From: Candidatus Omnitrophota bacterium
GTDB lineage: Bacteria; Omnitrophota; Omnitrophia; Omnitrophales; Aquincolibacteriaceae
Length of the DNA stretch: 64,000 bases
Direction: 5' to 3'
Assembly (NCBI GenBank): GCA_043821445.1
Contig: JBDRCT010000017.1
Span: forward strand, 5,679-69,678
The position numbers and the translations under genes were made by a program. Below, in pieces: positions 1,842-26,500 of the stretch. Each line of letters begins with the position of its first letter. Positions within the stretch are counted from its first letter, which is position 1. The notes beneath the pieces are model-generated. The model was not told where the DNA came from and did not search any database. It saw only the letters and a program-made list of their open reading frames with translations.

Positions 1842-1850
1842 GCAGAGTCC

Positions 1851-2128: not shown

Positions 2129-2183
2129 GGGAAGAGACGAGAGACGCAGGCAGTAGTCTGCGGTCTATGGTCTGTAATCTGGC

Positions 2184-5100
2184 TTACGCGGACTTCCCGA
2201 TCGCGGCGGCGGCTTGGATCGCGGCGCCCAGGAGCTCAGCGACAGTGAATTGGAAGGCACTGCTCACCTTTGTGCGAGACCCGGTCACGGTCACAACCCC
2301 GTCGAACTGATTGAGCAACGCTGACGCCGCATGCAATTCGCTGGGGTCAACACCCTCCGTCACCTGGGCTTGGATCACATTCCGGTTCGCCTTTGCCGTA
2401 GCAACATCAATATGTAACCGATCCAATTCTTCTGTAACCGCCTGCGACAATAGGCTGTTGACCTGGCCAATGCGGAGGTCCATCTTCCCGACCCCTTTCA
2501 GAGCCTCGTTCGCAGCCGCTTCATCCGCCTGACCTGCGATGACCACAAACCTGCTGCCGGCCTGACTCTGCGCTACCCGTTGCGCGATGTAAGCCCCGTC
2601 AAACCCGTCGGCCGGATTGAATTCAATAATATGGAGTCCATTCCCCTTCAGGGAAAGAATCACACTTACATTAAGCGACTGCATGATCGATTCGATCATG
2701 CGCCCTTCGATCCGAGTGGCAAGCGGATTAACAATCTCAGGAAGAACCTGCATCGTAAACCGGGCTTCCTGCACCCCTGCAGCCGCCGCAATCGCTCTTT
2801 GGATCTCCTGTTCGCGTGCCGCCGCGCTTTGTTCCTGTTCCGCCGGCTGGACCTCGGGCGTTCTCAATTCCGAACGCGCCGGAATGGATTCCACGTTAAC
2901 AACCACTTTCTTGTCGGCAGACTGCTGAATACCCGCCTCCAACACCGTTCTGCCTTCGGACGCCACCACAAACCGGCCGTCTTCCATCCGGAAATCCGCC
3001 GCTTTCAACTGATCGAACGAGACCATCTTCAACAGCTCATTGATCTTTGTGGCATATTCCTTCCGGTCGACGCTTAAACTGATAAAATCGGTCTGCGTTA
3101 ATTGTTGAAGCTTGGAGAGCGCGTAAACGAGTTTGGTAACACTTTCAGGATTCCCCTGGCGCACCATCTCACGGAATACATACACGATCCGCTGGAACGT
3201 TACAGTCTCCATGAAAGTCTTGAAGTCGGGATTGGAGGCCAGTTCATTACGGATCTCCGCGGGAACTGCCTCTTCGGCAATGGCCTGGCTCAGATCAAGG
3301 ATCACGCCGTCGCGCGGTTCGTAAAAACCGGCCGCACGAACAGACGCCCAGTTCGACTGCAACCGCTCAAGGTTCGCCGCACTTTGCAAATAACGGGCGT
3401 TTGCGAGTTGGGCCGATGTAAGTTTACCTTTGCCCACGGCCGCGACATCAAGGATATAAATGAAAGACATCAGTTTCAGAAAGACCGGAATATCATTCTC
3501 CGGAAGCCCTTCAACCACCTTTCGCGGAACCGTCTCTCCCCACGGCAAAGCACCATATTCCAGTTCGCGCGAAGTCAATGCTGTCACGATCCTGACGGTT
3601 CGCGCGTCCATGCCGAGTTTCTCCAGGATCGCTTTGACCAGCTCGCTACCCACCACCGGATGCAACGGCCCCGTCGTGATCAGGCGCCCGTAATCGTGGA
3701 ACGCCAACGCCAACGCAAGCAACTTCTTCTCCTGCTCCGACAGACTGGCATTATAACTATCAACGAACGCCTTGAGGCCGGCCTCATCTAATGTCACGCT
3801 CGCTAGATTCCTGCTCCGGAAATAAGATACATCGTTAGCCTGCAATGCTTTCACACCGTTGAAGATCACTTGCTGGTGGTCACGGAAGGTCACGGTAGAT
3901 CCGTCCGGCATTTGCCATGCGGCCCCGCGGATCGGAACGTCCTGCTGCCAACCGAAAAGGCCGAGCGGGCTTAAGGCGTCGATAATGTCTTGAGGATTAT
4001 TCATCGCGGAGATCTTTTCCGCACCTTCGAGGTCCCGGGCCGGATCGATCCTTTCTAAATTGGCCATAAAACGGGTTTTCAACTGTTCCTGGAGCGCGGG
4101 CATCTCGCCCGAGGTCACGTGGATCTTTCCGACCAGTTCCCGGCTCTTATTGTCTACCACGGCACGTGCTTCGGACCGAACCTTGCTTAAAGCTTTTTCC
4201 GCGTCCGCCCGCGCAATAAGATTCAACGCTACCGGCCCGCGTTGCATCGAAGCGGTCCACCGGCCGATCATTGTGTTGATATCTTTGATACGATCTTCAT
4301 GAAGTATCGGACCACCCGGTAACAGGGAGAAATTGCTGACACTCAGAAGCTTAGCGCTCGGAGCCGGCACATCCTGCGCAGCTTGTGAAACAGGGCCAAA
4401 CACCATTTCGACAGTCCCTCCCACAAGACCGTCCAACTTCACATCATACTGGATCGTCCCCTCCTTCGAGACATCGAGAACACGAGTTTCGCTTCTCGCA
4501 AGCGCCAGGCTGACAACAACATCCGGAACAAGGGTTCCAACAATTCCAAATTCTCTAGAGGGTACGTAGACCGGTGCCCGGACTTCCGCCAGCGACGGAG
4601 GATTCACCTGGGCCTCCTCCGCGGGAACTTTTGGAACCTCGAGTCGCATTGGCATAGGCGCCGCCGGAGTTGCTTTGAGTTCCTCCAGTTGTTTCGCTTT
4701 TGCATCCGATAATTTGATATTTTCAGAATGGCGGATCCACATCCACAAAACTCCTACAACGCTCGCCAAAACAAGCAACAGCGCCACCGGCCCAACAAGG
4801 AACAGCCCACCCCACATCAACCCAGCAAATGATAAAACGATCGCAGTACCTATTAATCCGGCGATCTGCCAAGGGGTTTTCTTGATCCGGGCATCCAGCG
4901 CCGCGACTTCTCCCTCTAATTTTGTTACATCCTCCGACGGCGCAATAGCTGCCACGAGTGGCGCTACCGGAACCGCAGGCGACGCAGCGACAGTTTCCGG
5001 CGCCACGGCTAACGGCGTTTGCGCGGCAACTTGTGAAGCTAGAATCTCAGGCTGGCTTTGAGCCGTCTTTGGAGTAGCAACGATCTGTTTACTCCCGGGT

Positions 5101-8100
5101 AATACTTCCTGAGCGAGCTCCTGTTGGCGACTTAGATCGGGCAGCACCTCTTCCAGCGTCCGAACTTCAGACCGGCCAGGAGGAGTTCTGAGATTCCCAT
5201 ATTGATCAACGTCCGCCACATTTTTCGGTTCTTCCATCTTCTTTGGAAGTCCAAAAAAGCGTAAAACACGTCCCAATTTTTTCACACGCGACGAAGTTTT
5301 TTCATTTTTGGAAATGTAATCAGAAACGTTATACATTAGCTTGTAAAGCTGCGTTGATGGTGTCAAATCAGCTTTAATAGCCGCCTCTTCAACACCAATG
5401 TAGCCGCGGATAAATTCCAGCCAATGTCTAGCAGGTGCCATCAAAAGGAAAGGCGCTGCCAATAAAAACCCTGTCAATGCAGGGATCACAAAAACCATCG
5501 GTAACGCAAACCAGAAATAGACAGCCGATGCCGCGCTCATCTTGAGAAAAACACCGGCCGCGATCATAAGCCCGACCCCGACATTGAACCCCACGTGAAA
5601 CAGGACATTCGAAATTCTCATACTCCAGCCGGCAAACCATCCCAAGGTGCCTTTCTGCTCTTTTTTGGTTTCGCTATCTGAAAACATATCGGCCTTCATG
5701 CTTCTGTAGACATGCACCCAGAACAGACCGAGCCTCTTGATGCCGCCCCCCTTAAAACCGAGTCCTTCTTCAAGGTCGGGATAGCCGGCCGGCAAATTTT
5801 TGAACTGGTCCAGCCAGACATGCCAACCCGCCATGGACCAGGACCAAAGGAACGTGATACCGAAGACGAACGTGAACAAATTACTGTGGAACAGAACGCC
5901 GGAAGCGATCGCGAGGAGCGCCGCGACAAAAGCCGGACTGTAGAACATGTAAGTGCGCAGCAGGCTCTTTGCGCCATCAATCTGTCCGGTCCCGAACGAA
6001 GTGGCCCAGGGCAGCTGCTGGTCACGCATCACAATAAAGATCATCCGGGTGAATTTAACGGTATAGCGCAGCACCAGATAGCTGATCACGAACGCCGTAA
6101 AAATAGGATGTGCCGCTACCAAAGTCCCCAAGATGCCCGTGATGCCCCAGGGTGATAAAACACTCCATGCCGTCAGTTTTGCCGCAAGCACCGCGGCACC
6201 GGACGTAAAATGCCAAAACACGAAATTCCCGTTCATAACATACCAAAAGAGAACGGGAATACCAAAGATCATCGCGGGTTTCGAAACCCATTGGATCAGA
6301 TTCCCGATCACGGTGCCGATCGTCAAATGCCAGCTCCTGCTAACATTCTGGGAACCCTGCATAAAGAGCTTCCAGGGGTTCTCCCAGAAATTGCGCTTGA
6401 TATGGAGAAAAGTATCCGCCAGTCCGGTCGTGGTCCCTTTATAGAGCAGCATGACCTTCCCCCAGGTCTGGCCCTGAATGCTCCCAAAAAGCACGGGGAA
6501 AACGATGACGACGAAAAGCACGCCGATGAAGAGCAACCCCACCACCGGGAACGGGAGCACCACGAAAGCCGGAAGGAATTTTGCCGTCAGGGTGATACTC
6601 GCCCATACTAATGCCACGACCATGGAAGTAAATATCACGCCGTTCATCTTTTTAGAGATCCTGGTCCATTCCAGAATCAAGGCAATCATGAAAGAACCCA
6701 ATAACATGGCCGCAAGTACGACCGTGAACGGGAGCCAAGCCGGCCAAAGAACGCCGACAACCCCCAGCAGCGCCACCAAAAATCCCGGCATTAATAGACG
6801 CTGTATAATATTAAGAGCTTTTTTCCCGGAGAGTTGTTCCGCGTCCGCCGCTGAGCGGCGCATGAACCCGGCGATCAGGAGCGCGACCACGATCCCGATG
6901 ACCACCCCCACCCAGAGCTGGGGCATAACACACGACGTCATCAGGAATTCGGTCGACCGCGGCACCATGATCGTATACATGTTCGCCATCCCAGATAGCG
7001 AAGGGTCAAAGAAAAACCGTTTGATGACCCAGAAACCGAAGATGATCGGGTTGATGTATCCGAGCACCGCCACAAAGCTCATCCAGCGGGCCGCCAAGGG
7101 AACGCCCGGCTGGAAAATATCATACACACGCATCAGGTCGCCCTGGGCCCAGCGTACGAAGCTCCTGCCTTCCATTTCGAAGAACGTAGGTGTGGAAGGT
7201 TCGAGGATCGCGGCATTGTCCACGAACACGGCTCCCGTCGTGTCCCCTTCCTTGTAGTCGTGGCTCAGTTCCTTGATCGTCACGACGCCGAAAGACCCGG
7301 CGCTCTTGCCCGAGACCCATAACCCCGCAAACAACCCCAGCATTTGTCCGATGGAGAATTGAACCATCAACGGAGCGCTTAACAGGAAAGAAAGAGCCCC
7401 CGGAACGAAAGGAAGAGCACTTGGGATGAGAGGAAGAACAAATGACAGAAGAGAAAACACGATGGGCCCGGCCGCGATACCTGCCAGTGTGAACACAAGC
7501 ACCGTCCACCACCGGGAGGGCATGTTGCGCGCATCTCCCGTATGGTAATGGCTGTGAAGATTGACCAGCGCCTTGCCGGTAAAATTCCCCCGCCCCCGGA
7601 TCAACTGCAGGGCGTGCGCGTAAAAAACGCCGTGATTGCTCGCGAAATCGTTAAGCATCGTAAAAAATGTCCGGGCCGTCCTTTCCGTGACGACTTTCGT
7701 CCTCGGGATGATAATGCCCGCCCAATTATGTGTACTGCGGGCGACCTCCACCAACTTCCGGACGACATTGATGAAGGCCTTTTCGTTCGGGTATTCCGGA
7801 TTGTCGGGATTGTCCCCCAGACGGTTCTTATTATCCATCGTGAAGATATGCTGGGTACCCTCGGGATTTGTCGTGAACAATTGAACGCGGCGGCCTTGTG
7901 AATCCTCTACTGGAGCAAGTCGACCATTTTCATCTCTTTCCGGCAGACGATTCCTCAGTAAATGGTCCGGATCAAACCCGCAAATTGAATCCTTGGTATA
8001 AAGATCATCGGCAAAATAGCGGGTTCCCACTTTATTCGGTTTCAAATTCGCCTTGTGCTGTTTGTAATTCATGATCGCGCGGCCCGCAAAATATCCCATC

Positions 8101-17100: not shown

Positions 17101-20100
17101 ACAATGATATTCTTGACATAATCGCGCTTATGGGCCTGCTGCAACAATTCCGATTCCTTTAACGCTTGTTCGAAGAAATCCCACTGTGCGGACATGTCCC
17201 CGAAATCCCAAGTGCCAGTCAGGCCTCCGCCCACTCCGGCCTTGAAAACGCCAAGCGCCTCCACGCCGCCGTCCACAAAACGCCGGATGCGGAGGTCCCG
17301 CAGCTTCTTGTCCTTCAATTCCGGATGGCTATCTTTTAGTGCCTGGAGGTCCGCTTTGACTTTCGGAAGCGTAAAATGCAGGGCCTTCAGGTCTTTGGCC
17401 GCCTTCTCTTTTTGCTCCGGGGTGGATTGGTCGGAGTTCAGGACCTCTTCCGCTTTGCGGATACGGGCTTCAATATCACCGATCTGACCGATCCAATTGC
17501 TGAAGTTGATCTCAATACGTACGGCCTCATAGGCCTCAAGTTTGGCCTTATTCACTTTTTCGATCTCTGCCTTGATCACTTCCGGTAAGCGTGGCGCCTT
17601 ACGGAAAAGATCACCGAACTTTTGGAAAAGATCGCGTTCCTTAGGACTGGTCGCCCGTTCATATTCCGAGAAAAGCTGGGCCTCGTATTTCTGAAGATCT
17701 TTGATCTCAACACCATTAACCGTTCCTTTCAGTCTGATTCCCTCCCCAGCCAGCATCTGGATTTCACGTTCTTTGACTTCCCGGGCACGGAACTCCTCAA
17801 GGAGGAGGTTCACATTTTTCCCGCCGGCAAGGTTGTCCGCTAACTCCGTGGCATCAACCGGCCGGTCACTTTGCCGGTATTTCGCTTCAAGCTGGGCGAA
17901 GTACTCCGCGTCGAAAAGTTTTCGGCTTTCCCCTTTTTTGACCTTTTCGGCATCACGCTCGAAATCCTCTTCGAATTTCGCGAGCTTTGCGCTCACCCCG
18001 GACGTAAAACGGTTGATCTCGATTGTTAGTTGTTCCACTTGATGGGCCGTGTCTGCGGCCTGTCTTTTCGCGAGGTCATACTGCTCGACCGCAGCCTTAA
18101 ATCGCATGGACCAGCCCGACTCGTTGCGATAGCGCTGCCGTTCTTCCCTCAAAAGGTTCTCTGCCCCATCAAGCCGGGATTGGACGATCCCGTTAATCCG
18201 GACAGCCGTCTCGAGACGGCCACGCAATGCCTCCTCATCCGCCTTGATCTGCTGGGCGTCCTGATAATATTGCAACGCAGCCCCCTCACGGGAAAGCATG
18301 TGGACCATCGCGGGTGTCTTGGGATCGCGAACGGATGAAAGCGGCGACATGAAGTCGAACGCTTTGGGAGGATTGAAAAAGATACGTGTTCTAAAGAGGA
18401 TCCCCATTTTCCCGCGGGCCTCAGCCAAAGAGGTGTTAAGTACATCCAGCGCATATTTCCCTTGCGCTGCCGCAAGGTCCAGGCTCTGTCCTCGCGCGGC
18501 CGGGGCCGCGGTAGCCTCAAAAAATTTGGCCGCCTCTTTCGGATCTTCCAGTTCTCTCGGGAGGATGATCTTTTTGTCCGTGACCCCGACCAGAGCGCCG
18601 ATCGAACGCAAGATCCCTTCTAATTCAGCACGACGGTCCGCCAGGTCACGCTCCAATTGGCGGCGTAATTTACCGATCGCCATGGCGGCATCCGTGTCCT
18701 GTCCTTCCCGGGTACGTGTTTTCGCAATTTCTTCGTCGTTGCGCACATCTTCAAGCGAAAGCCGCAACTTCTCTGCAAGGATTCTCGCACGGGCATAATT
18801 ATTCCCATGCGTCCTAAGTTCGCGGACAACATCGGCCATTTCCCGGTCCATTTGCAATAGTCCTTCCCGCTCACGGTACGTGGCGATCGCCTGGCGTTCA
18901 TTTTTCGTGGGATCCGACAAATAGAAACTGACCTCGGTGCCGACACCGTATCCTTTAAAAATAAAATCGGTGCCCGCGCGGGCGACAATACTCAAGGTGA
19001 ATTTCCGGTCATTCCTCTGGAACTTCGCCATGGCGTCCAAGATCGCCTTCGAAGGACCTGCCGTGGCCATCCGCGTCGCGATCGCCATTTCCAGCAGCTT
19101 GTCAACACTGACCGGCTGCCCTTCATTAAAAAGAGGCAAAGCGATGGTCACGTTTTCCGTGACCGGAGTATGTTCCTTGGCCTCGGTAACAGCGCTAAAC
19201 CGTTGAAGAATGGCTTCTCGGACAACATTCCGCAGCATCTCGATCTCGGGAGGTGTCAATGCGTTAATGCCGCCGGTCTGGTCCATCAACTCATCAAAAC
19301 CCGCCTGCAGGTCTTCGGCCTTCAACTTTGAAACATCGCCACGGCCGTCGGCGCCCCTCAGGGAGGCCACGTACTGGTCGGCAAGGCTTTTAATGAAACC
19401 GGGCCGACCAAGCAGGGACCTGGCGATCTCGCGGCCGGCATCCGAGGTATTCGCGTTAAAAGTGATCCTGTCGGTGATCTCACTCGTCAGGTAGTTTGCA
19501 AACCTCTGCGCATACCCATTGCGACTTTCCTCAAGGCGGAGTTCTGCTTCCTCCCGTTTTGATACAAGTTCGTCGTGAATCCGTCGCGCCTCTTCGGCCG
19601 CGGCTCCCATCGGTCCGGCAACGGCAGCCGTTTCTACCGTAGCTGCTCTTGTAACGTTCGGAGCGGGCCTCGCGGTAACTGTGGCGGCTTCTTCACCGAT
19701 CGCTGCGACACCTGTCATTGCGACTAAAGATAATACCGCCGACGTATTGGGCCCGAAAATATCGTCGACCGGCTTCGTGAGAGCCCGGAGACTGCGGCCC
19801 TTTAACTGTTCGGTAAATTTTGCGGGAACGGCCGCGCCCGTCATGACAGCGGCGAGCTCGGGGTTGTTCATTACTTCGGTTTGAAATTTTTCGACGACTT
19901 TGGGGTATTTTGCTTCATTAGCCTTAAGCCAGGCACCGATGTTGTAAGGCGTCGGCGCTTTTCCTTCCTGAGCCAACGCTGCCTTGCCTTCCTCGACAGC
20001 TTGCTGTAAATCGGTGGATAATTTCTGAAGTTCCGCGGGCGCGGCCTGCCGCTCGGTCACAAGCTCTGTGCGCTGCGCTTCAGCGGTGGGGACTTCTCTT

Positions 20101-23100
20101 TGCAGTGCGGCGTCTTCCACACGCCCCGCAGCCATTTCTGTAGCTCTCGCCGCAGGAGTGATCGTCGTCGAGGCCGGGACGCCGGATCTTTCCTGAACAG
20201 GCGGTTGGGGCGTGGCCGCTGTCTTTGGCGCGAATAAGGATTGGATACCACTGAAGACTTTCTCGATCAACGGAAGCGGATTGGGGACCATCCCGGCCTG
20301 CATAACTTTTACAGGTTCGCCCGTCGCGGCCGGGGTTTGCACAGCCTCTGCCTTTGCTTGACGGATCACCGTCTCCACGGAGGCAATTGCAATGTTCATT
20401 TCCTCCAAACTCATGGCATGGTTCGGGTCCAAAACAGCATCCGTGACCTTGGAAAATAGTTGTCGCGCCAGCAACGCCGTGACTGACGATTTCGGAAGCT
20501 TACGAAGCTCTCCGTCTAAACGCGCCAGGGCAGGTGACGCTGTCATCCGGACCTTTTCCGCCTGAAGTTCCGCCAAATGCCCGGCCTCTGTCCTATAAGC
20601 TTCGGTCCCCTCGCTCATTCCGGTCATTCTTGCCTGAAGGGTCGCAATGTCATGCGAGACTTGCCGGTCAGCGATATCTGTTCCAACACGGGCCAGGGCA
20701 CTATTCAGAAACACTTCCGGAGCCACAAGCGGCACAAGCCCGCCCAACGACCACATCCCCTGCCACACATTATTGAATAGACCGAGGAGGGTCCGTTCAA
20801 TGAACATCGCCACGGTGTGAAAACCATGGAATTCTGCGATGCCTAAAGGTTTTAAGGCCTGATTTGCCACGCTATCGAGCGATCCAAAAAGATGTAACAC
20901 GGCCGGAATTTCAAATGCCAGGGTGATGAGCCCCATGGCCGTCGTGAAGCCGGAAAGATAGAATCTTCCGCTCCCTAGAGTGCGGTACCGAGCCATGCGG
21001 TTGATCTCCATGCGTGTCGCGACCGCATCATCCACAGCAGAACTGGTCAGAACCCGTCCTGTCTCCCGGGCCTTTTGAATTTCATCCTGTGTGTACCGGC
21101 CGGCCAGCTCAGCCTGAATTCCATTAATACGTTCCAATAAAAGGAGTTGCTCGTTCTGATTCAAACTAAGGACATTCGCGACGATCATGCCGCGCAGCAT
21201 CTCAAGGTGGGACAAGAGGAACATATCGAACGTTTTCTCATCCATCCCAAGCTGTTTGGCCATTTCCTGGCGTTGTTCCGGCCCGATCGCATCAAAGTAC
21301 TGTCCTATTCCTTCATAAGTCAAAGTCGAAACGGATTTGCCGCCCTCTGTCCTGCTAAAAGCGAAGAACCCGGAAGCCTCCATCGTTTTAAAGCCGTACG
21401 ACCGCATTAGTTTCAGGACAGGTTCAAGGAAATATTTTTCCTGAATATGCTCAGCACGGCTTTTCTTAGCGGCCCCGCCGTACGCCATGATCATGCCGAG
21501 GAAAACATCTTTAAGGAGCGTGCCAAGACTTAAGGGAACCGCATCACCAAAGACTTTCAGAACGACTTGCTTACTGAACAGGTTGTGCGGAATAAATGAA
21601 ATGAGGTCGGGCGCCACAAATGCGCCGATCAACAAATAGCCCGCAATTCCGAGCCCGGCCGCCATCCCGAAAACGGAACCCGCGGTCTTGACGCGGTAAC
21701 TCCGTGTGGCCTTTTTGATCTCCGCCGCCTTTTGCGCTTCATTCAATTCGGTCTTCGGGAGCGCCCCGTATTTGCCCTCGATAGCGGCTAAGGTCTCTTT
21801 GAATTTTTCTTTACGGATCTGATAGACCCCGTAAGCGCGGTAGGAAACAAAAAGGGCAAGCGCGATACCGGTCCCGATCGGCCCCGTAAGGATGAAGGCC
21901 CCGGCGATGATCCCTTTGAAGAACAACGCGCCGCGGCCAAAAACGAACCATTGGAAAAAAGCCCCCAAGGGATTGGTAATATCGGAAAGGACGTAACGGA
22001 CCGCTTTTGCGGAAGTAGCTTTGGAACCCAGAAAATCTGTGATCTTTTTTGCCAAAAAGTTCTGAAGATGCAGGACCCGGATGATACGGGCATGAAGGGC
22101 GTCGCTGCGCGCGAGGTGATTCGCTACATTCTGAAGTCTCTTTTGGACCACGATGTGCTGGTCAAAAAGAGTGCGGATCCGTTGGGCTTCTGCAGAAGGA
22201 AGACCGGCCAACACCTGATCCAATTCCTTGTTCACCTGGTCCCAATCCCCGGTCGTCGTCGCAGCCTGCCGGCTCAACTCTTTCGCTTTTTCCGCAAGGG
22301 CCGTCAATGCCGCATCCTTCTTCTCAGTGAGATAGTCCTCGATCGTTTGCCCTACCACCAAGGGAAGCCGGCGATTCAAGGCATCCGTCAGAGCCTTCAC
22401 ATCGACGATCGCTTCCCCGGTTTCCGGATCGATCTCGACTTTTCCATCCTTGCCGATCTTTACAAAATAGGTCCGCTGTCCCGTTCCGTGGATGCGGTAC
22501 ATGATGGGATAAATAAGTTTTTGAATGAACGAAGACATGAGTTGGATCGATAGATAGAGCGGCGCACCCAGAACAAACAAAACCCCCAGCAATCCTTTTG
22601 CGACAGAGCCGCTCTTAAAGAGAGTTTTGACGTTCTCAATAAAGACAAACGTCACGTTGGCCATTTCCTTGGTCATCATCAGACCGATGACCGCTCCAAG
22701 GGCCAACACAGGCCACGCAAGGGAAATAAGCGCTGCCACTCCGACGCCTGTCAACAGACCGACTGCAAGGCCTGTCGCATAGAAAATCCCTTTGTGTGAT
22801 TTCACGCGAAGGTCAAGAGTCTTCTGTTCTTTCATATGCTGGCGCTGTTCAAAATCTTTTTCGACCTGCAGGTCGCGGATCGCTCTTTCAACTTCTTCCA
22901 ACTGCGCCAGGCTTAGGTCTTCTAAACGGACCGGCGTTTTTCCATCCACACGCAAACTCGGGATCTTCGCCAGCAGTTCCTCTTCTTTCATACTGTGTCC
23001 GGTCCTACCCAACGTCCGAGCCCGAATTTGATGGATAAAGAGGTCTTTGTCTTTTTTAGCGAAGCGCGTAAATGCAGATATCCCGGATAGCCCCTCGGCT

Positions 23101-26009
23101 GATTTAAAGCGATAGCCTTGTGCGTACCGGTAGAGCGTAAAACGGACTTTGACGAACGGGGTAAGGGCAACACTTGTTCCGTTGTTCACTTTGTCCATGA
23201 ACCGGCCCCAAAAGACCCCCGCCTTTTTGAAGATCCCCGGTTTTTCCTGAACCGCGGGAACTATTTCTTCAGCCGGTTTTGCTTCGGGTACCACGGGCGG
23301 TTTTGCTGGCGTTACTTCTGCGGCTTTCGGGGCTTCGGCTTTGGCGGCAACCTCCGCCTCGCGCTTGGGAGCTGCTTTCCGTTCAGCTACGGCGGCTGCC
23401 TCGGCCTCCCTGGCAAGAGCTGTTTTGCGTTCGGCGATCACTCCATTGATTGCATCCATCGTGAGCGAAACGGTATCTGTCGTGATCTTAAGTTTTGCTC
23501 CGAGGCTTATCGCCTCACGAAGCACGGGGATCTTCGCTTTGATCGCCTCCGGGCTGGAGCGCGAAAGAAGCCGCAGGATCACGCTACCGGAAAGATCTTG
23601 AGTGCCCACGCCCCCCTTTTGGGGATCCAGGGCATCCAATTTCGCTTGAAAATTTCTGTTCAGTAAAAGTTTCCTGAAAGCTTGTTCTGCGGCCTTCTGC
23701 TTATCAACATTCTCCTGGGGTTTCGGATCCGCAAAACCCGCGGCATGAAAAAGTCTTAGATTCTTTTCATAAAGGGCTTGCTCATCAGCATTGGGTGTCG
23801 GAGTAACCGGCAACCGGGCTTCCGACCGCGCTACGGCAGAGATCGCTCCCATTTCCGCCATCAAGCCCGGGACAATTTCCTTCGGACCAGCATTCCGCGC
23901 AACATCTGCGACAGCAGGCGGAATCCTGAGCTCACCAACACCTTGATAAAAAGTAACTGTCAAATTATCGCCCAAGCGGATCTCCGACCTTTTGCGGACA
24001 CCTAACTGAACTTCGCTTCGTCGCACCGCCGGATCAGAAAAAACGGCGACGGTCGCACGCAGTTCAGAACGCCCTCCCTCAGGGATAAGAACAGGAAACC
24101 AAACTTTATTCCCGTCTTGGATCGCTACCGACGGCAAAATTTTATTCATAAAGTCGCGAGCCTCTGTAAAAAGTCCCGCGAGCGCCTCGCGAATTGAGGA
24201 CAGTGCAGTTGCACCCCGGAACACGCTCACGGTGGACACAAGCTGCCCATATGTTTGGGCAAATGTAAGATTCTCCCCCGCTCCGATCTGGGATGTCGTC
24301 GGAATTCCATTCGGCGCAGACAACTGGAAGCGCGGATCATTGAGAACGCCGGTCTTGGGTTGAAGGAACGCTTCCGAGAGAACTTTTTCGATCGGGAGCG
24401 GCGTTTCGCGGAGCGCGGCGTCGTAAAGCGCGCTTTCTTTTTTCTGGTCGATCGCCTTGGAGATGCGCGGGGCAACGACGATGTAAGAAAAGCCCTTCTC
24501 CTGAAGGTACTTTTCGATCCCGGGCGTATGGAACCCGCCTGTGATGATGGCGGAGATCTTCTGCCCGGAGGCAAGGGTTTTCTCAACCGCTCTCTCGACC
24601 AAGACCTGGTCGCGTTCAAGCGCTGCTTGATAGAAGCGCTCCACACGCGGCAAGTCCTGATCGAGGGTCTCCATCTGGGACGGCAATCCTAGGGAGAAGT
24701 GATACTTCTGGGTGAGCGGTTTGAGAAAACTTGAAAAGGTTCCGGCTTTGAATTCATCTTGGTGAGTGTAATAGAACTCGGCGTCCTGCTTGGTCAAAGT
24801 AAAATCGAACATTTTGTTCATGACATCATAGATACGCATGAGATGATCCAGCTTGATCTCTTCCGGCGTCGTAAAAAGTTTGTTCTTAACGTCTTTTTCG
24901 AGGACCTCGATCTCATCAAAAAGGGAAACACCGATCGAATCGTAAAGCACCATGTACTGGAAGTAGGCAAGGACATTAGCGTATTGCTTGGTCAGGTCCC
25001 TCCCTCCGGTCTGAGTCACACTGATGCTACGGATCTCATCCTGAAGGTATCCGTAATAGGCGACGCGTTTCATCTTCTTCATGCGGAAGTGGACGGTGTT
25101 GGTCAGGAAACGGGAAAGTTTTTCGCGCGAAAGAACGCCCTTAAGATCGTTAATGAGTTGATCAGTCTCTTTTTCGGCCTTGTCGAAATCGATCTGCTTT
25201 TCAAGGTCGATCAGCTGGATCAGGGACTGCATCCCGCTATAATTCTCCGGCTTGAGATCATGCTTTTGGGCCATGCCCACGAGGAAACGGACATAAGCCA
25301 CCAATTCGCGGCCGCTTTCCTGGAACGCCGCGCGGCGGCGATAGAGCTCGCGCATCTCTTCCGGGAACACGAAGCGGCCCATGTACGCCAAAACCTTGTT
25401 AAGCGCGGCCAAGATCTCTTCGTCACGGGCCTTGAACTGAAGCGCGTCCACGTAGGCCTTGCGGTTCTTTTCGTAAAGTTCCGGATCTTCCACGCCATAA
25501 AGTGTCATCACCGGCTTTTCAACGATCGCCAGATATTCCGGGCCGGTGAGACGGCCTTCTTTCAGGAAATAATCCGCGACGCTCCGGCGGGCTTCTTTGT
25601 CCGGGAAAAAAGAAAAGAGCTCGGTGTAAAGCTCGCCGGAGGCGCCTTCAAGGTTCACAAGGCCGAGCTGATATTTTTCCGAAAAATGACGGAGGATATT
25701 GGCGATGTTCCGCTGGGCCTCCTCGTTGATGTGCGCGTCCTGGATCGCGAGGATGATCTGTCCGCGGCTCCCCTTAAAGGAGCTCTTGATCGTTCCGTAG
25801 CTGTCCGGAAGGTCAGGACGATCGATCAGGGAGAGCGCCGCGTTGGCTTTAAAGGATTCGACTGGAGTGAGGCTTGAGGGACTGGACGCGGCAGCATAGG
25901 CTTTAACGCCACCGTCCCAAACGACCGAGGTGAAGGTAAACACACAAACCGTCAGAAGCGCAACGGTCCTAAGCCAAGGCTTAAAACTGTGTGTTTGCCA
26001 ACTGATCAT
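2184..26009 (-). CDS. giant (7941 aa) signal-anchored multi-pass membrane protein of unknown function
   Basis: A single stop-free frame of 23,826 nt. There is a plausible SD (GAGGA) 12 nt upstream of the ATG and an N-terminal hydrophobic anchor (LRTVALLTVCVFTFTSVVW). TM clusters lie at about aa 1075-1170, 1345-1510, 1685-1775 and 5320-5470, and a roughly 937-aa polytopic block of about 20 helices lies at about nt 5440-8250. The protein has long coiled-coil/alpha-helical soluble stretches and an Ala/Glu/Lys/Pro-rich linker (aa about 865-915). An HD-like motif LALAFHDYGRL lies about 500 aa from the C-terminus. Confidence 0.9.
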   Translation of the reverse strand: MISWQTHSFKPWLRTVALLTVCVFTFTSVVWDGGVKAYAAASSPSSLTPVESFKANAALSLIDRPDLPDSYGTIKSSFKGSRGQIILAIQDAHINEEAQRNIANILRHFSEKYQLGLVNLEGASGELYTELFSFFPDKEARRSVADYFLKEGRLTGPEYLAIVEKPVMTLYGVEDPELYEKNRKAYVDALQFKARDEEILAALNKVLAYMGRFVFPEEMRELYRRRAAFQESGRELVAYVRFLVGMAQKHDLKPENYSGMQSLIQLIDLEKQIDFDKAEKETDQLINDLKGVLSREKLSRFLTNTVHFRMKKMKRVAYYGYLQDEIRSISVTQTGGRDLTKQYANVLAYFQYMVLYDSIGVSLFDEIEVLEKDVKNKLFTTPEEIKLDHLMRIYDVMNKMFDFTLTKQDAEFYYTHQDEFKAGTFSSFLKPLTQKYHFSLGLPSQMETLDQDLPRVERFYQAALERDQVLVERAVEKTLASGQKISAIITGGFHTPGIEKYLQEKGFSYIVVAPRISKAIDQKKESALYDAALRETPLPIEKVLSEAFLQPKTGVLNDPRFQLSAPNGIPTTSQIGAGENLTFAQTYGQLVSTVSVFRGATALSSIREALAGLFTEARDFMNKILPSVAIQDGNKVWFPVLIPEGGRSELRATVAVFSDPAVRRSEVQLGVRKRSEIRLGDNLTVTFYQGVGELRIPPAVADVARNAGPKEIVPGLMAEMGAISAVARSEARLPVTPTPNADEQALYEKNLRLFHAAGFADPKPQENVDKQKAAEQAFRKLLLNRNFQAKLDALDPQKGGVGTQDLSGSVILRLLSRSSPEAIKAKIPVLREAISLGAKLKITTDTVSLTMDAINGVIAERKTALAREAEAAAVAERKAAPKREAEVAAKAEAPKAAEVTPAKPPVVPEAKPAEEIVPAVQEKPGIFKKAGVFWGRFMDKVNNGTSVALTPFVKVRFTLYRYAQGYRFKSAEGLSGISAFTRFAKKDKDLFIHQIRARTLGRTGHSMKEEELLAKIPSLRVDGKTPVRLEDLSLAQLEEVERAIRDLQVEKDFEQRQHMKEQKTLDLRVKSHKGIFYATGLAVGLLTGVGVAALISLAWPVLALGAVIGLMMTKEMANVTFVFIENVKTLFKSGSVAKGLLGVLFVLGAPLYLSIQLMSSFIQKLIYPIMYRIHGTGQRTYFVKIGKDGKVEIDPETGEAIVDVKALTDALNRRLPLVVGQTIEDYLTEKKDAALTALAEKAKELSRQAATTTGDWDQVNKELDQVLAGLPSAEAQRIRTLFDQHIVVQKRLQNVANHLARSDALHARIIRVLHLQNFLAKKITDFLGSKATSAKAVRYVLSDITNPLGAFFQWFVFGRGALFFKGIIAGAFILTGPIGTGIALALFVSYRAYGVYQIRKEKFKETLAAIEGKYGALPKTELNEAQKAAEIKKATRSYRVKTAGSVFGMAAGLGIAGYLLIGAFVAPDLISFIPHNLFSKQVVLKVFGDAVPLSLGTLLKDVFLGMIMAYGGAAKKSRAEHIQEKYFLEPVLKLMRSYGFKTMEASGFFAFSRTEGGKSVSTLTYEGIGQYFDAIGPEQRQEMAKQLGMDEKTFDMFLLSHLEMLRGMIVANVLSLNQNEQLLLLERINGIQAELAGRYTQDEIQKARETGRVLTSSAVDDAVATRMEINRMARYRTLGSGRFYLSGFTTAMGLITLAFEIPAVLHLFGSLDSVANQALKPLGIAEFHGFHTVAMFIERTLLGLFNNVWQGMWSLGGLVPLVAPEVFLNSALARVGTDIADRQVSHDIATLQARMTGMSEGTEAYRTEAGHLAELQAEKVRMTASPALARLDGELRKLPKSSVTALLARQLFSKVTDAVLDPNHAMSLEEMNIAIASVETVIRQAKAEAVQTPAATGEPVKVMQAGMVPNPLPLIEKVFSGIQSLFAPKTAATPQPPVQERSGVPASTTITPAARATEMAAGRVEDAALQREVPTAEAQRTELVTERQAAPAELQKLSTDLQQAVEEGKAALAQEGKAPTPYNIGAWLKANEAKYPKVVEKFQTEVMNNPELAAVMTGAAVPAKFTEQLKGRSLRALTKPVDDIFGPNTSAVLSLVAMTGVAAIGEEAATVTARPAPNVTRAATVETAAVAGPMGAAAEEARRIHDELVSKREEAELRLEESRNGYAQRFANYLTSEITDRITFNANTSDAGREIARSLLGRPGFIKSLADQYVASLRGADGRGDVSKLKAEDLQAGFDELMDQTGGINALTPPEIEMLRNVVREAILQRFSAVTEAKEHTPVTENVTIALPLFNEGQPVSVDKLLEMAIATRMATAGPSKAILDAMAKFQRNDRKFTLSIVARAGTDFIFKGYGVGTEVSFYLSDPTKNERQAIATYREREGLLQMDREMADVVRELRTHGNNYARARILAEKLRLSLEDVRNDEEIAKTRTREGQDTDAAMAIGKLRRQLERDLADRRAELEGILRSIGALVGVTDKKIILPRELEDPKEAAKFFEATAAPAARGQSLDLAAAQGKYALDVLNTSLAEARGKMGILFRTRIFFNPPKAFDFMSPLSSVRDPKTPAMVHMLSREGAALQYYQDAQQIKADEEALRGRLETAVRINGIVQSRLDGAENLLREERQRYRNESGWSMRFKAAVEQYDLAKRQAADTAHQVEQLTIEINRFTSGVSAKLAKFEEDFERDAEKVKKGESRKLFDAEYFAQLEAKYRQSDRPVDATELADNLAGGKNVNLLLEEFRAREVKEREIQMLAGEGIRLKGTVNGVEIKDLQKYEAQLFSEYERATSPKERDLFQKFGDLFRKAPRLPEVIKAEIEKVNKAKLEAYEAVRIEINFSNWIGQIGDIEARIRKAEEVLNSDQSTPEQKEKAAKDLKALHFTLPKVKADLQALKDSHPELKDKKLRDLRIRRFVDGGVEALGVFKAGVGGGLTGTWDFGDMSAQWDFFEQALKESELLQQAHKRDYVKNIIVQRQFLDQIHYRIDVFEGAIMHEQTLLALLEASREKEGVTPEKIKDIDRQIIWGRQRLSSFEEAKTSLESEHNRAEEKMLRIMGRDVEDRKDPGRFTYTPKSKQSFMEGELSEEELGLLSGFDKDIDRKVAEQRVRIQWAMLNTADHKSYKQLHLMVPFISAVPVTTNYVPISEHLDAIIEDPAHIGIGGSGSLRTYSGHLAKDKTLDIAVAEANLRTMFDDYQDFIIRQGLVSQNLDRQVANTKDQKTETRRLIGDLDESISEYEEKEQAGLADAGDRELYTAIRQVNRDDQDDNELIHQLNLRLLQVNRATKGTLKIGAQGRVIDLTTPENLRDFVKSNSDRVADSNEKLAQELRDIQEYGRYLRPLAISTEVFRIPLGFGRGDDFQAGGRVTFDFRELAFSKTQLEIYMARAKQLGLEKEFRRDIRQRLVELAWQDVLRSKAIWDIREQEMQARKEMAAAAQTGTALEDQQALSDAVIRTVTMAKTAERDFEIYVNMLKFIAGIPAEIDIQVPPTNLLQRVYNGEPIGEEVVAKMLKSAAEDPRFQSILRNNDVATAEVKQAEKNRSWTSQVGIFAGYHPSVGAEYTRHLIDRAKTELVNIEKAKKELAVAQQDPLRRAVQMQALEEYAAFVLNRVRLVQIADEFAGSLSFANDATAGYRAIGEPGRTVKTVNDVLAAFDYRENDSLRLTGINFEFQKSLINLSHTTELMGLHEEAQRVQHTARAPLPYQTRQQVALEQLQQAEARIDREAAEVAQLPVPPEPAEAVVDLKVLQKKLGEEKKPPVIEPRTDYRDKNTNEPYVPSVSELWRNMFGADTAVIERGRDGKVVGGLSEPVLVEDVFVRLFDAMRLTPNERLAMFEILKTLSRSGTDGKPSLKEKLNDPDFKKFMAQLPRNEKLGLNYAQLIEGLLSNRTLTAMNQEEANSLLDRNTDLRILGVYVFYATSILKGMKVEDINARSANVPELVQNQFSDRFNSMFSERLKVDFIFLTKLVKNMADQVERNKASPNGQAVPVIAPPQFTSDEIAFLTRDGLLSRLVDIKDRRVDFKAWAEQQKRLGSQEDDAALKRRFVGQVFLDWATYTDRQVSAQPYYKFSTLEDTFQEFNNVRKAVFDLYRANFGRDLGLYGDIKDLADITAWQYMSFMGKLYSPDKGERAKRLNTVILLTNYILENKRVPIVGLNGEPSAADPSAAMLRFLRASAEANQTYADRREVQKEEAGLRTGALMGEVVFRTIQGIEQYAEVHGKSISDALDELGNALPQGIRAGPLGDIRSGIDDYYRKAPEILKALDASRLFSRALNMKDPRDSGQVSAWYEYGTRYHLTIDELKQIIEVAGKLYPKLQELYGRDFRLDQGGKVSANMGIVMAHAQFILGVTDWHKEAAQYREDFRQGKLLSQFQLDTMWDYEKWETMGGVNAPIGTRIDARIKEYERRLDLMDKFAKHPKAFKGAEEIFKILYGSSYQYSIREPEEQQGVAFGHIMNEAYIAERDHIPYDRLAQRYENIVKLIDSPAFTDYLRALKVIGENQDLRTLLPELAKDKTPEGKAKLTKLMGRLTGAAKDLPADFEAIYAQRGKVLKLLVDQHGQDFEGFSTWLKSHYGNVTVAYPEETPRTIEQIEKDLYLFLQRSKYAEVINRNPAWKAQIDAIIDTEASENFPGAFVEGIVAGMPDMLKARGLDITKDDPASLAKLRTFFDNFFLIVGKFDRYPVVQDAGSLNMERKIIGLQESLMIADPDLAGVLQAQSTLPLLQRVSAGRMLVGTASFWLGRVMDSEAQRNAATPNYWLSRQAPGWAAKMIPEWLSKMVEENKYPESEEQYVDMKKVETVIIPRAKAAWEAYHGILEPMGYSITKADIMSVVLNTKEIEKVSDIQEYFEQCQLMLALALGRPDLIPGQYKSMIPEEKLSRKPGEKQITLEQQNLGRPLAFNEMQGYVIEFRRSLKMRHHSIVAPGYNGPSLAVQKMVTKFIFVEPSDPSKTYLNVAASAEGQDAFRGKYALPGSDLQQMADKRGALWEALPEGEKARTALLLSTTFLSRWPVDPQLADKDFFHFLMGLGKNVKDLQRLQEIARLGQDLEGSFRDEFFARNGKDLTYDRKMLEDASQFRRFLILRLMTRPVVLATPADFEQGFEARLQAKKTVPANRIPELVKYYVDNNHLFGALNAGSLQKLRDIKDENQLNLMVNDLKTLMQEIVVGDRLAMDPNRLLNSILSLHQDKTVATFKNFEENMLRKYLQLAAEKQEPLQPEDAGAPEQFVQGLSEKLSLGLTKEQQDAWIQGLGRGLLSPAQVRVVLTDLAWFRGEQQDIPADLRVQDDSLLRFIAAGRDMPLVHAGVIADRKPVFYSQEQLEVLGQLAGAQGVELAKQYESYFADNYVLSSNTRIQEETKGGKARPKLSDFLTERGSRTRQMGEFWSAWSVILPIFSVITTIFVLIAAFAVRQLRKAGKIKVPVLDHAGNPVLREEFQYERTGMLPRSEMRQLFSRLISTEEETMDPALAARNREVRREPLGKEYAPPYLTLRGAVMLLVHGAFVGLFLLMSWQVLELTNSNIFWNVIDLFESGWMAFMLSHILTAWLAGRIFPKSMTMGEQSRVRGVLAKIFPKLVKMRPSAASRDAIERPELDLLVLKATAKPEAKTEAEQPPKSSDSKGNLPPYIEKEDGTRVYLKPADRHDLSFTVVEEKDGEEVQREVSLKTEEGQKRQALPPGHKTSIAYFNFDSFPPPQESMKDAAGKPMKDAADKPVIDHTIRLWLLEMFKAHASIEYIKEQFKIEFGVDIDKKNNEGGWQDFFFLKNVIDSLAYNLDPYGRTTLLILAEKEYSKVIKKAGKNDANAILQFEFIKAALEYAREQVIQIGASRFGDGSVYVPNGNGDYTIPGYVYTKDEPTKGARKGDLIPLTRAQLGKALIYYLPLTELHFEKKQGNILSTEDYLMGQDGPPAATELPIPLLRFSGRVNDPVGAAVVNGVALVLTVAGVIWLAPALAVLGPILSSPWIVGAVMWLMGYFAGRAIMNYKQHKANLKPNKVGTRYFADDLYTKDSICGFDPDHLLRNRLPERDENGRLAPVEDSQGRRVQLFTTNPEGTQHIFTMDNKNRLGDNPDNPEYPNEKAFINVVRKLVEVARSTHNWAGIIIPRTKVVTERTARTFFTMLNDFASNHGVFYAHALQLIRGRGNFTGKALVNLHSHYHTGDARNMPSRWWTVLVFTLAGIAAGPIVFSLLSFVLPLIPSALPFVPGALSFLLSAPLMVQFSIGQMLGLFAGLWVSGKSAGSFGVVTIKELSHDYKEGDTTGAVFVDNAAILEPSTPTFFEMEGRSFVRWAQGDLMRVYDIFQPGVPLAARWMSFVAVLGYINPIIFGFWVIKRFFFDPSLSGMANMYTIMVPRSTEFLMTSCVMPQLWVGVVIGIVVALLIAGFMRRSAADAEQLSGKKALNIIQRLLMPGFLVALLGVVGVLWPAWLPFTVVLAAMLLGSFMIALILEWTRISKKMNGVIFTSMVVALVWASITLTAKFLPAFVVLPFPVVGLLFIGVLFVVIVFPVLFGSIQGQTWGKVMLLYKGTTTGLADTFLHIKRNFWENPWKLFMQGSQNVSRSWHLTIGTVIGNLIQWVSKPAMIFGIPVLFWYVMNGNFVFWHFTSGAAVLAAKLTAWSVLSPWGITGILGTLVAAHPIFTAFVISYLVLRYTVKFTRMIFIVMRDQQLPWATSFGTGQIDGAKSLLRTYMFYSPAFVAALLAIASGVLFHSNLFTFVFGITFLWSWSMAGWHVWLDQFKNLPAGYPDLEEGLGFKGGGIKRLGLFWVHVYRSMKADMFSDSETKKEQKGTLGWFAGWSMRISNVLFHVGFNVGVGLMIAAGVFLKMSAASAVYFWFALPMVFVIPALTGFLLAAPFLLMAPARHWLEFIRGYIGVEEAAIKADLTPSTQLYKLMYNVSDYISKNEKTSSRVKKLGRVLRFFGLPKKMEEPKNVADVDQYGNLRTPPGRSEVRTLEEVLPDLSRQQELAQEVLPGSKQIVATPKTAQSQPEILASQVAAQTPLAVAPETVAASPAVPVAPLVAAIAPSEDVTKLEGEVAALDARIKKTPWQIAGLIGTAIVLSFAGLMWGGLFLVGPVALLLVLASVVGVLWMWIRHSENIKLSDAKAKQLEELKATPAAPMPMRLEVPKVPAEEAQVNPPSLAEVRAPVYVPSREFGIVGTLVPDVVVSLALARSETRVLDVSKEGTIQYDVKLDGLVGGTVEMVFGPVSQAAQDVPAPSAKLLSVSNFSLLPGGPILHEDRIKDINTMIGRWTASMQRGPVALNLIARADAEKALSKVRSEARAVVDNKSRELVGKIHVTSGEMPALQEQLKTRFMANLERIDPARDLEGAEKISAMNNPQDIIDALSPLGLFGWQQDVPIRGAAWQMPDGSTVTFRDHQQVIFNGVKALQANDVSYFRSRNLASVTLDEAGLKAFVDSYNASLSEQEKKLLALALAFHDYGRLITTGPLHPVVGSELVKAILEKLGMDARTVRIVTALTSRELEYGALPWGETVPRKVVEGLPENDIPVFLKLMSFIYILDVAAVGKGKLTSAQLANARYLQSAANLERLQSNWASVRAAGFYEPRDGVILDLSQAIAEEAVPAEIRNELASNPDFKTFMETVTFQRIVYVFREMVRQGNPESVTKLVYALSKLQQLTQTDFISLSVDRKEYATKINELLKMVSFDQLKAADFRMEDGRFVVASEGRTVLEAGIQQSADKKVVVNVESIPARSELRTPEVQPAEQEQSAAAREQEIQRAIAAAAGVQEARFTMQVLPEIVNPLATRIEGRMIESIMQSLNVSVILSLKGNGLHIIEFNPADGFDGAYIAQRVAQSQAGSRFVVIAGQADEAAANEALKGVGKMDLRIGQVNSLLSQAVTEELDRLHIDVATAKANRNVIQAQVTEGVDPSELHAASALLNQFDGVVTVTGSRTKVSSAFQFTVAELLGAAIQAAAAIGKSA

Positions 26010-26039
26010 CGGATTGCCGTCCTCTCTTGAAAGTCGATC

Positions 26040-26500
26040 AGAATTACTCTGTAATTCCCAGCCTTCTTAACCACTATATTAAACTTATTTTAAGACCTTA
26101 ATAACCTCAATAGAAATATACACAACGAAGTCTCCACAGTCAAGGAAACCTAAAAAATTTTTAATGATGTAACCCATTATTAATCAACATGTTATGTAAC
26201 TTTAGAATAAGATTTAACCTTTTTGTTGCTCCCATATAATTTTTTATAGCATTACTAAACAACAAAAAATGCCACTTTTTTTCAGAAATAATATCTGGAG
26301 GAATAAACATATTTAATATATTCATAAAAAGTTCTTTGAAATAAAACTCATTAAAACGGGGGTCCTTTGAATTCGATCGGAGTTAAAACGCTATGGGATG
26401 AACTCTTGCAAGTATGGAGACAGGCAGCACTGGTTTCCCATCTAAAAACTATGAGTATCGGTGCTGACTACGATTTTGAAAAAGAAATGATAGTTTGGAC
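26040..26500. promoter_or_regulatory. AT-rich (about 70% AT) upstream/promoter region of the giant gene
   Basis: Composition shifts sharply from the about 57-60% GC surroundings. It lies directly 5-prime of the giant gene start codon at 26009. Confidence 0.5.

Follow-up and report, generated by a model that had tools for sequence, protein, structure and literature searches.

The subject of this work is a window of 64,000 nt, the whole stretch of DNA that was analysed (contig JBDRCT010000017.1 of assembly GCA_043821445.1, a Candidatus Omnitrophota bacterium), and, within it, a single giant open reading frame (ORF) encoding a protein of 7,941 amino acids (aa). The N-terminal domain of this protein, here called the head (aa 49-570), recurs at the start of other giant ORFs, and the resulting head-plus-giant architecture constitutes a large, as yet unnamed family of membrane-anchored giants. 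All members open with a signal or anchor of Sec type, followed by a head of ~520 aa. In a confident structural model the head displays the fold of the TIKI/TraB/Ere superfamily, with the catalytic His/Glu set intact. Three aspects of this architecture appear to be new: the recognition of the head as a protease-like domain, its position at the opening of giant ORFs at 105 Omnitrophota loci, with bodies that are often unrelated, and a strict R-[S/A]-E-hydrophobic-R motif that the sequence comparisons indicate to be specific to head-bearing ORFs. We propose, with slightly less than an even chance of being right, that the head would be a site-specific endopeptidase cutting at R-[S/A]-E-x-R, and that the giant protein would be a membrane-inserted polyprotein, giving rise to pieces of the envelope or the cell surface.

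A giant ORF in Omnitrophota is in itself not new, as the phylum is already described as commonly having ORFs of >20 kb that are rich in transmembrane helices and poor in domains (Seymour et al., 2023; PMC10066038). Giant ORFs fill a large share of the small Omnitrophota genomes, with their workings almost unexplained, and of the proteins of at least 10 kaa (thousand amino acids) 15% are reported to be without Pfam matches (Pfam-dark) and 80% to be singletons at 30% identity (preprints 10.1101/2023.11.21.568195 and 10.64898/2026.06.07.730766; PMC10066038). The interest of the present case rests less on the length of the ORF than on a concrete and testable answer to the question of whether, and where, such giants are cut.

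A single gene of 7,941 codons

The original prediction, made from the DNA letters alone, had called one uninterrupted reading frame, and this call stands. The frame, at 23,826 nt, exceeds the 20-kb mark; its coding strand, left unstated earlier, is the minus strand, and its GC content, estimated earlier at 57-60%, was measured at 0.52-0.56. The gene and its start region comprise the following features.

2184..26009, minus strand: giant ORF, ATG start, 7,941 codons plus stop, one unbroken reading frame with a collinear ortholog (P0033)
26011..26022, minus strand: conserved box GGACGGCAATCC, ending 1 base before the ATG and overlapping the Shine-Dalgarno-like purine run
26115..26143, minus strand: sigma-70-like promoter, -35 TTGACT, 17-nt spacer, extended -10 TGTGTATATT (TATATT), ~105 nt upstream of the start

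The reality of the gene is demonstrated by its relatives. The search for homologous giant ORFs that had been recommended with the prediction was rewarded by a protein of 7,853 aa (P0033), recovered by an exhaustive HMMER search with aa 5900-7099 and found by BLASTP to be collinear with the giant protein from the first to the last residue, with identities of 68% (aa 1-861), 43% (aa 1814-3008), and 64% (aa 2995-7941). A contig of a related metagenome-assembled genome (MAG), L015, matches aa 1-2989 at 69%, up to the contig end, and in comparison with it the ratio of nonsynonymous to synonymous substitution rates (dN/dS) is 0.10-0.43 in every segment (2,935 codons). As two independent assemblies hold the frame open under purifying selection, chance is excluded, and a chimera is very unlikely: the giant ORF is a real single gene of an Omnitrophota chromosome. 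The protein shows extreme cysteine depletion, with only four cysteines in 7,941 residues (aa 22, 4849, 6010, and 6360; 0.05%).

The start region had been described as credible and preceded by an AT-rich promoter, and it proved to be so. The ATG is preceded by AGAGAGGAcggcaatccgATG, below an AT-rich stretch (GC 0.46 at 26001-28000), and 16 aligned upstream regions of related loci all share the -35 TTGAC and the extended -10 GTGTATATTT without change. Of 70 head loci, 25 carry the GGACGGCAATCC box in its exact form, and many others carry GGGACGGCA variants. Such a conserved spacer is unusual for a plain Shine-Dalgarno sequence, and the box might be a regulatory or a translation-initiation element. 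Loci with unrelated protein bodies (L004-L083) nevertheless keep the region upstream of the head-bearing giant gene.

The head domain and the exchangeable bodies behind it

The head region of the protein is made of two features.

25890..26009, minus strand: putative signal peptide or signal anchor, aa 1-40, with K10 and R14, hydrophobic residues 15-31, then AYA followed by AAS (hydropathy, AlphaFold2 model)
24300..25865, minus strand: head domain, aa 49-570, TIKI/TraB/Ere-like alpha/beta core at aa ~72-175 and 482-550, with a ~300-aa helical insertion

The N-terminal hydrophobic anchor noted earlier is recognized by hydropathy as a segment at aa 12-31, just before the AYA and AAS triplets, and the AlphaFold2 (AF2) model places a helix at aa 10-30 and disorder at aa 30-48. 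The model of aa 1-570 is confident (mean predicted local distance difference test score, pLDDT, 83.7; predicted template modelling score, pTM, 0.72), and its strands, at aa 72-126, 169-173, 485-491, and 508-514, form an alpha/beta core split by the ~300-residue helical insertion, with the parallel beta-sheet core by which the TIKI/TraB/Ere/ChaN superfamily is defined. Among 26 head homologs (23-82% identity) the residues Q90, D91, H93, E121, G122, G125, G172, E174, R466, G491-T495, and P514 are invariant, producing a pattern of D91-x-H93 with E121 following 28 residues on, and with H494 as the second His. The catalytic set of the TIKI family is composed of two His and two Glu, with H85/E113 in Bcr135 and H3902/E3930 in RRSP, both 28 residues apart (PMC6254334); the spacing in the head is thus the same, with Asp taking the place of the first Glu. 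A Foldseek search of the head model against PDB produced no significant match, and no sequence-level match to any Pfam or NCBIfam family model or to any PDB chain was found for the head, profile search included. The prediction that the giant protein has no recognizable architecture is therefore valid at the level of sequence, while structurally it gives way to a TIKI/TraB/Ere-like head, as modelled with AF2, and to two modules conserved across giants, described below. A free-standing head of 518 aa also exists.

A search with the N-terminal 700 aa returned 32 proteins, and nearly all of the named ones are hypothetical proteins of Candidatus Omnitrophota/Omnitrophica. When GTDB was scanned with one genome for each species, 105 head-domain loci were identified, 80 of which were kept for analysis, and among these 80 every named record is an Omnitrophota MAG. 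The closest relatives, L015 and L004, share syntenic blocks with the window in which nucleotide identity is 88-90%, and the link to Omnitrophota, earlier offered as an inference, is thus borne out. One distant head homolog (P0031; 24% identity, E 1e-31) is annotated as Candidatus Theseobacter exili, of the phylum Auribacterota, which also belongs to the PVC group, so the head domain is not strictly confined to Omnitrophota.

The ORFs started by the head are long. In 61 of 73 loci they run past the end of the retrieved DNA, L015, L010, and L014 among them, and every head locus with the full 10 kb downstream is open for at least 3,884 aa. Homology to the body of the giant protein is limited to L015, L010, L014, L046, L071, L013, and L059, and loci with heads 75-82% identical carry unrelated bodies; several of the loci with unrelated bodies share the upstream genes for a cNMP-patatin and an alpha/beta hydrolase. 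The chromosomal position, the promoter, the start region, and the head are therefore kept, and the body behind them is swapped for unrelated sequence, a pattern that bears on how giant genes evolve. Within the gene itself, dS against L015 varies seven-fold, from 0.28 at aa 1001-1800 to 1.94 at aa 2401-3000, which suggests that alleles or paralogs have recombined there in a mosaic fashion. Some genomes possess two to three head loci, part of them in tandem. The bodies of 14 other head-bearing giants, analysed as 42 chunks, are mostly Pfam-dark, with SecA_DEAD, Peptidase_M15/VanY, and OEP each recognized in 2 of the 42.

Some of these loci have peculiarities of their own. Several of them (L012, L014, L015, and L048) possess an additional head a few kb upstream of the main one, more diverged at 24-47% identity. 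Tandem giants are found in L077 (1-9513; also in L086), and in L077 an ORF of at least 3,170 aa ends 488 nt before the next head gene. In the syntenic relative L001 (also in L002), a 973-aa head ORF and a 623-aa ORF are in the same frame, parted by one stop and one codon (10778-10786); this stop may be a sequencing error, a nonsense mutation, or a site of readthrough, and a JGI record and an independent NCBI record both show it.

The R-[S/A]-E-x-R motif, the modules, and a proposed cleavage mechanism

The pentapeptide R-S-E-x-R occurs eight times in the giant protein (aa 647, 674, 728, 5444, 6946, 7172, 7278, and 7712), against 0.12 occurrences expected, and all of its RSE tripeptides stand in the R-S-E-x-R context. 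The codons vary between the copies, pointing to constraint at the level of the protein. The sites are as follows.

23814..24071, minus strand: head-body junction, R-S-E-x-R cluster at aa 647, 674, and 728, plus RSEVQ at aa 664
9666..9680, minus strand: RSEMR, aa 5444-5448, conserved and duplicated in P0033
5160..5174, minus strand: RSEVR, aa 6946-6950, in the linker after the polytopic module, kept in P0033 with gapped flanks
4482..4496, minus strand: RSETR, aa 7172-7176, not conserved in P0033
4164..4178, minus strand: RSEAR, aa 7278-7282, upstream of the HD-like domain, conserved in P0033
2862..2876, minus strand: RSELR, aa 7712-7716, directly after the HD-like domain

The motif follows the head. 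ORFs of <600 aa in the fetched loci are at background with 3 copies (2.0 expected) versus 146 copies (4.9 expected) in those of at least 1,000 aa, and head-bearing ORFs possess 126 copies against 4.4 expected, an enrichment of ~30-fold. Where the head is absent, ORFs of at least 600 aa whose N-terminus is complete have 6 copies (1.3 expected), and five of these lie in ORFs that directly follow a truncated head ORF. Among the giants that share the polytopic module described below, the head-bearing P0033, P0037, P0039, and P0040 have 6, 7, 3, and 4 copies, respectively, and the head-less P0035 and P0036 have zero in 12 kaa. The R, E, and R of positions 1, 3, and 5 are strict; V, L, M, A, or I is found at position 4, and S (126 copies) or A (45 copies, versus 7.7 expected) at position 2, and the tolerance for Ala there speaks against a role in phosphorylation. 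Of 61 head ORFs, 55 carry a site just behind the head, at aa 540-850. The distal sites of the giant protein fall between modules, at five further module boundaries, and P0033 keeps five sites in position although the linkers around them are gapped. The order of an HD-like domain followed by a motif is found both in the giant protein and in the unrelated giant L077 (RSEIR). In the head ORF of L048 (aa 1425-1440), RSELR stands directly before VNRRDFLKTT, which resembles a twin-arginine (Tat) signal, although it lies well inside a giant ORF; such a signal, if genuine, would agree with the release of internal segments as separate exported proteins.

Behind the head and the junction, the protein is divided as follows.

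23235..23432, minus strand: Ala/Glu/Lys/Pro-rich linker, aa ~860-925, read from the translation
20685..22790, minus strand: first membrane hairpins and spans, aa 1074-1775 (hydropathy)
9870..20612, minus strand: long soluble body, aa ~1800-5380, without domain matches or repeats, of mosaic conservation, with homology in L015, L010, L014, L046, and L071 only
9369..9866, minus strand: three membrane spans, aa 5382-5547, around the RSEMR site (hydropathy)
5430..7727, minus strand: conserved polytopic module, aa ~6095-6860, ~16-20 helices (HMMER, BLASTP, alignment, hidden Markov model)
4734..4877, minus strand: membrane hairpin, aa 7045-7092 (hydropathy)
2865..4043, minus strand: HD-like domain, aa 7323-7715 (alignment, sub-threshold Pfam HD)
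2187..2861, minus strand: poorly conserved C-terminal tail, aa 7717-7941, ~30% identity to P0033

The Ala/Glu/Lys/Pro-rich linker noted earlier is present, and the positions given earlier for the transmembrane clusters were approximately right. By hydropathy, hydrophobic clusters are at aa 1074-1163, 1355-1474, 1683-1711, 5382-5547, 5926-5976 (a hairpin), 6167-6860, and 7045-7092, and they include 26 uncharged stretches, several of which are of 40-68 residues; these longer ones are read as helical hairpins or triplets, giving an estimate of ~30 membrane spans. Positive-inside counts gave contradictory orientations. The membrane group at aa 1074-1775 is strongly conserved in comparison with L015 (dN/dS 0.10), and is diverged in P0033.

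Among the best conserved parts is the polytopic module of ~750 aa, which is 81-94% identical in P0033 and is recognizable at 21-36% identity in seven other proteins. Some of the proteins that possess the module are giants, 4,048-7,976 aa in length, both head-bearing (P0037, P0039, and P0040) and head-less (P0035 and P0036). Invariant among them are G6145, K6146, H6250, D6251, E6254, E6270, R6282, R6286, W6287, R6308, W6309, and E6354, and the invariant polar residues of the loop from H6250 to E6354 suggest a putative active or binding site. The loop (ELSHDY...RW) was considered as the TED/QxxRW signature of the GT2/GT48 glycosyltransferases, and this assignment was dropped, as there is no GT-A domain and no profile support, and the positions of the conserved Arg and Gln differ. 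The module has neither a profile nor a PDB match, Pfam searches of all members at E<=10 produced nothing consistent, and the AF2 model, based on a 10-sequence alignment, is unusable (pLDDT 39).

The second conserved module is the HD-like domain, which together with the polytopic module closes the body in this subfamily. The LALAFHDYGRL sequence pointed out in the original prediction is present and contains H7438 and D7439, and the pattern of H7378, H7438-D7439, and D7521 (H...HD...D) is invariant in three homologs. The identity as an HD domain is less certain: Pfam HD matches at E=0.025 and 15.3 bits, below the cut-off of 22, the best E-value among the three homologs is 3.5e-4, with HD the top Pfam family for two of them, the NCBIfam GlnD model matches the region at E=0.013, and PDB searches gave no sequence match. 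The HD assignment is thus plausible but not established.

Across the protein as a whole, searches of both halves recognized no Pfam or NCBIfam domain at E<=0.01 and no PDB sequence match. As had been predicted, it is neither an adhesin nor a megasynthase of the usual kinds: no internal repeats were detected by self-BLASTP, no DNA tandem arrays by Tandem Repeats Finder, no Ig, cadherin, or RTX repeat-adhesin arrays by Pfam, self-BLASTP, or DNA repeat search, and no nonribosomal peptide synthetase or polyketide synthase domains (C/A/T, KS/AT/ACP) by Pfam or NCBIfam, and thus no tandem array of a known adhesin or synthase module. Pattern scans of the protein for Walker A, HExxH, DEAD, Tat, and LPXTG returned nothing meaningful. 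Scans of metagenome contigs with the HD-like domain and with the polytopic module produced no relatives. Word-index searches with aa 5900-7941 and aa 6087-6420 also returned no match, and these negatives reflect a limit of the tool, which returned no protein of >1,195 aa and missed the 74%-identical 7,853-aa ortholog, and is uninformative for giants; HMMER did find the homologs.

A mechanism consistent with these observations may be outlined as follows. The N-terminal segment would act as a Sec signal, placing the head on the outer face of the cytoplasmic membrane, a location resembling the extracytoplasmic, membrane-tethered placement of Tiki and PrgY. There the head would function as a site-specific endopeptidase, with R-[S/A]-E-x-R as its cut sites, those at the head-body junction first, releasing the head, and those separating the modules next. 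The resulting pieces, that is the head, a body of ~4,700 aa, the polytopic module, the HD-like domain, and the tail, would become components of the envelope or the cell surface, plausibly serving the host-associated life style proposed for the phylum. The body itself evolves fast as a mosaic and is anchored in the membrane through many helical hairpins. The extension of this proposal to the family, with the head-bearing Omnitrophota giants as bacterial polyproteins, the head as their dedicated endopeptidase, and R-[S/A]-E-hydrophobic-R as a cleavage code, is the somewhat more doubtful of the two claims. If true, the motif would be a rule by which giants that resist annotation could be divided computationally into functional units that can be modelled. 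With a hydrolase-fold head found family-wide and a motif found only in head-bearing ORFs, the question of cleavage becomes directly testable.

A number of points weigh against this proposal. The link between the head and the motif is a correlation across sequences. Proteins of the TIKI fold are not all peptidases, as Ere proteins are esterases and ChaN binds haem. The sites at aa 5444 and 7172-7712 have K/R-rich flanks, and these, along with an HD domain, which is usually cytoplasmic, place the sites possibly in the cytoplasm, beyond the reach of a periplasmic head; positive-inside counts conflict as to orientation. The junction site is missing in 6 of the 61 head ORFs, several stretches of 3,900 aa are entirely free of motif sites, and cutting at the observed sites would leave a fragment of ~4,700 aa (aa 728-5444).

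The chief rival, which we consider unlikely but well short of dismissal, is that the giant protein acts uncleaved, as an adhesin-like envelope scaffold or coat, with the motif as a docking, regulatory, or autoinhibitory pseudosubstrate site, and with the head acting on external substrates of a host or prey. Adhesion, coat formation, or cell-wall degradation are the roles that published work proposes for Omnitrophota giants (PMC10066038; 10.1101/2023.11.21.568195), and Peptidase_M15/VanY, OEP, and SecA_DEAD domains are present in the bodies of some other head-bearing giants. Most motif copies are next to the head, as would suit an intramolecular ligand, one stretch of ~4,700 aa has no site, and the characterised peptidases of the TIKI family have other proteins as their substrates, Wnt for Tiki and Ras for RRSP (PMC6254334). 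However, the giant protein has no adhesin-type domains or repeats, the distal sites are conserved at module boundaries in variable linkers, a pattern more typical of processing sites, and the strict specificity at four positions of the motif is protease-like.

A second rival, of low probability, is a polymorphic-toxin-like locus of contact-dependent competition, with a conserved N-terminal delivery module, swappable cargo, and the adjacent toxin-antitoxin pair as immunity. The unrelated bodies behind a conserved head, which differ between related species even where the chromosomal position is shared, the range of dS along the gene (0.28-1.94), suggestive of recombination, and the two to three head loci of several genomes, some in tandem, would all suit such a locus. 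The distribution of conservation is the opposite of the one expected, as it is the N-proximal and central body that varies, and the C-terminal modules that are best conserved (81-94% and 91% identity to P0033). In addition, neither Pfam nor NCBIfam recognizes a toxin domain, the neighbour is an ordinary ParE/RHH-type cassette beyond the stop codon, and ~30 membrane spans argue against a secreted toxin.

The last rival, an assembly chimera or a decaying fusion of ordinary genes open by accident, for which one may point to relatives in which the equivalent region is split (973+623+3,971 aa in L001, where a single in-frame stop parts the 973-aa and 623-aa ORFs, and 691+1,160+571 aa with further ORFs in L003), is barely conceivable given an independent ortholog collinear over its full 7,853 aa, the open frames of L015, L010, and L014, purifying selection in every segment tested, and an open frame of 23.8 kb at 53% GC, impossible by chance, and the split relatives carry unrelated downstream sequence and are hence not fragments of the giant gene.

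Chromosomal setting and comparison with known systems

The gene is surrounded by an ordinary chromosome. Synteny of the upstream flank (cNMP-patatin and alpha/beta hydrolase) extends to at least eight related genomes, and the remaining genes of the window include lepA, lepB, SPOR proteins, an M16 peptidase, BatD, UvrD, GcvP, and a Mur ligase. The suggestion of a plastic, possibly horizontally acquired neighbourhood is thus not supported for the locus; plasticity is real, and it is that of the gene body. The immediate neighbours are as follows.

1563..1841, minus strand: ParE-family toxin (Pfam 1.7e-10)
1851..2081, minus strand: RHH-looking ORF of 76 aa before the ParE toxin, without a Pfam match
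27180..27252, minus strand: tRNA-Ala(CGC), intact (Rfam, ARAGORN)

The toxin-antitoxin cassette predicted at the 3' end is supported as to ParE, its partner being RHH-like in appearance, and the pair, ~100 nt downstream of the giant-gene stop, looks like an ordinary type II cassette, with no evidence found for a link between it and the giant gene. At the upstream tRNA locus, which had been taken as scarred, the tRNA-Ala(CGC) is intact, Rfam on the whole window recognizes the tRNA only, and Rfam and ARAGORN detect no pseudo-tRNA. Nearby is a pair of 94-nt direct repeats (26563-26656 and 26855-26948), 98% identical and 292 nt apart, with a third, partial copy (27249-27286) abutting the 5' end of the tRNA. 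Nothing in L004, the closest relative, matches the segment 26410-27170 at the nucleotide level, and this segment may be an insertion.

Among the known systems, the giants of Omnitrophota are the closest by description, sharing the phylum, an ORF of >20 kb, a signal peptide with many transmembrane helices, few or no domains, and poor conservation between genomes. The preprints on these giants (West-Roberts et al., 2023; Nielsen and Lui, 2026) use thresholds of 10-30 kaa, and the present protein, at 7,941 aa, is smaller. It fits neither of the described types, that of SecA_DEAD ("Archaeovorin") and that of dockerins, as it has no Pfam match at E<=1 to SecA_DEAD/SecA preprotein-binding, C39, or S8, and no dockerin/TSP3 or enzyme-cluster content by Pfam. 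The N-terminal regions of giants are stated to "generally lack identifiable domains" save for C39 or S8 peptidases, and whether giants act whole or cleaved is left open there, information on cleavage points being lacking (West-Roberts et al., 2023; 10.1101/2023.11.21.568195). In text searches, neither preprint showed any mention of TraB, Tiki, erythromycin esterase, RSE, or polyprotein (for PMC10066038 the comparison covers the passages containing the word "giant").

With the TIKI/TraB-PrgY/Ere/ChaN/RRSP superfamily the head shares the (D/E)-x-H...E...H pattern and the 28-residue spacing from H to E. The membrane-tethered position outside the cytoplasm that we infer for the head would be a further likeness, to Tiki and PrgY. 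It differs from this superfamily in the ~300-aa helical insertion, in Asp for the first Glu, in having no sequence-level match to it, and in standing, as a fused domain, at the N-terminal end of proteins that run to thousands of residues, and its hydrolase activity is predicted. The resemblance of the C-terminal module to HD-domain phosphohydrolases consists in the H...HD...D residues shared in three homologs, at a Pfam HD score of 15.3 versus 22 bits and with no PDB sequence match.

The MARTX toxins are giant multi-module bacterial proteins that are cut between their modules by a built-in cysteine protease domain. The theme of a giant multi-module protein with a built-in peptidase, here a proposed one, is thus shared, and the RRSP module of MARTX has the TIKI fold (PMC6254334). 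MARTX toxins are secreted, possess RTX-type repeats, and do without polytopic membrane blocks, none of which is true of the giant protein. In MARTX, moreover, the processing enzyme is the cysteine protease domain and the TIKI-fold module is the cargo, whereas the opposite role is proposed for the head of the Omnitrophota giants, which would itself be the processing enzyme.

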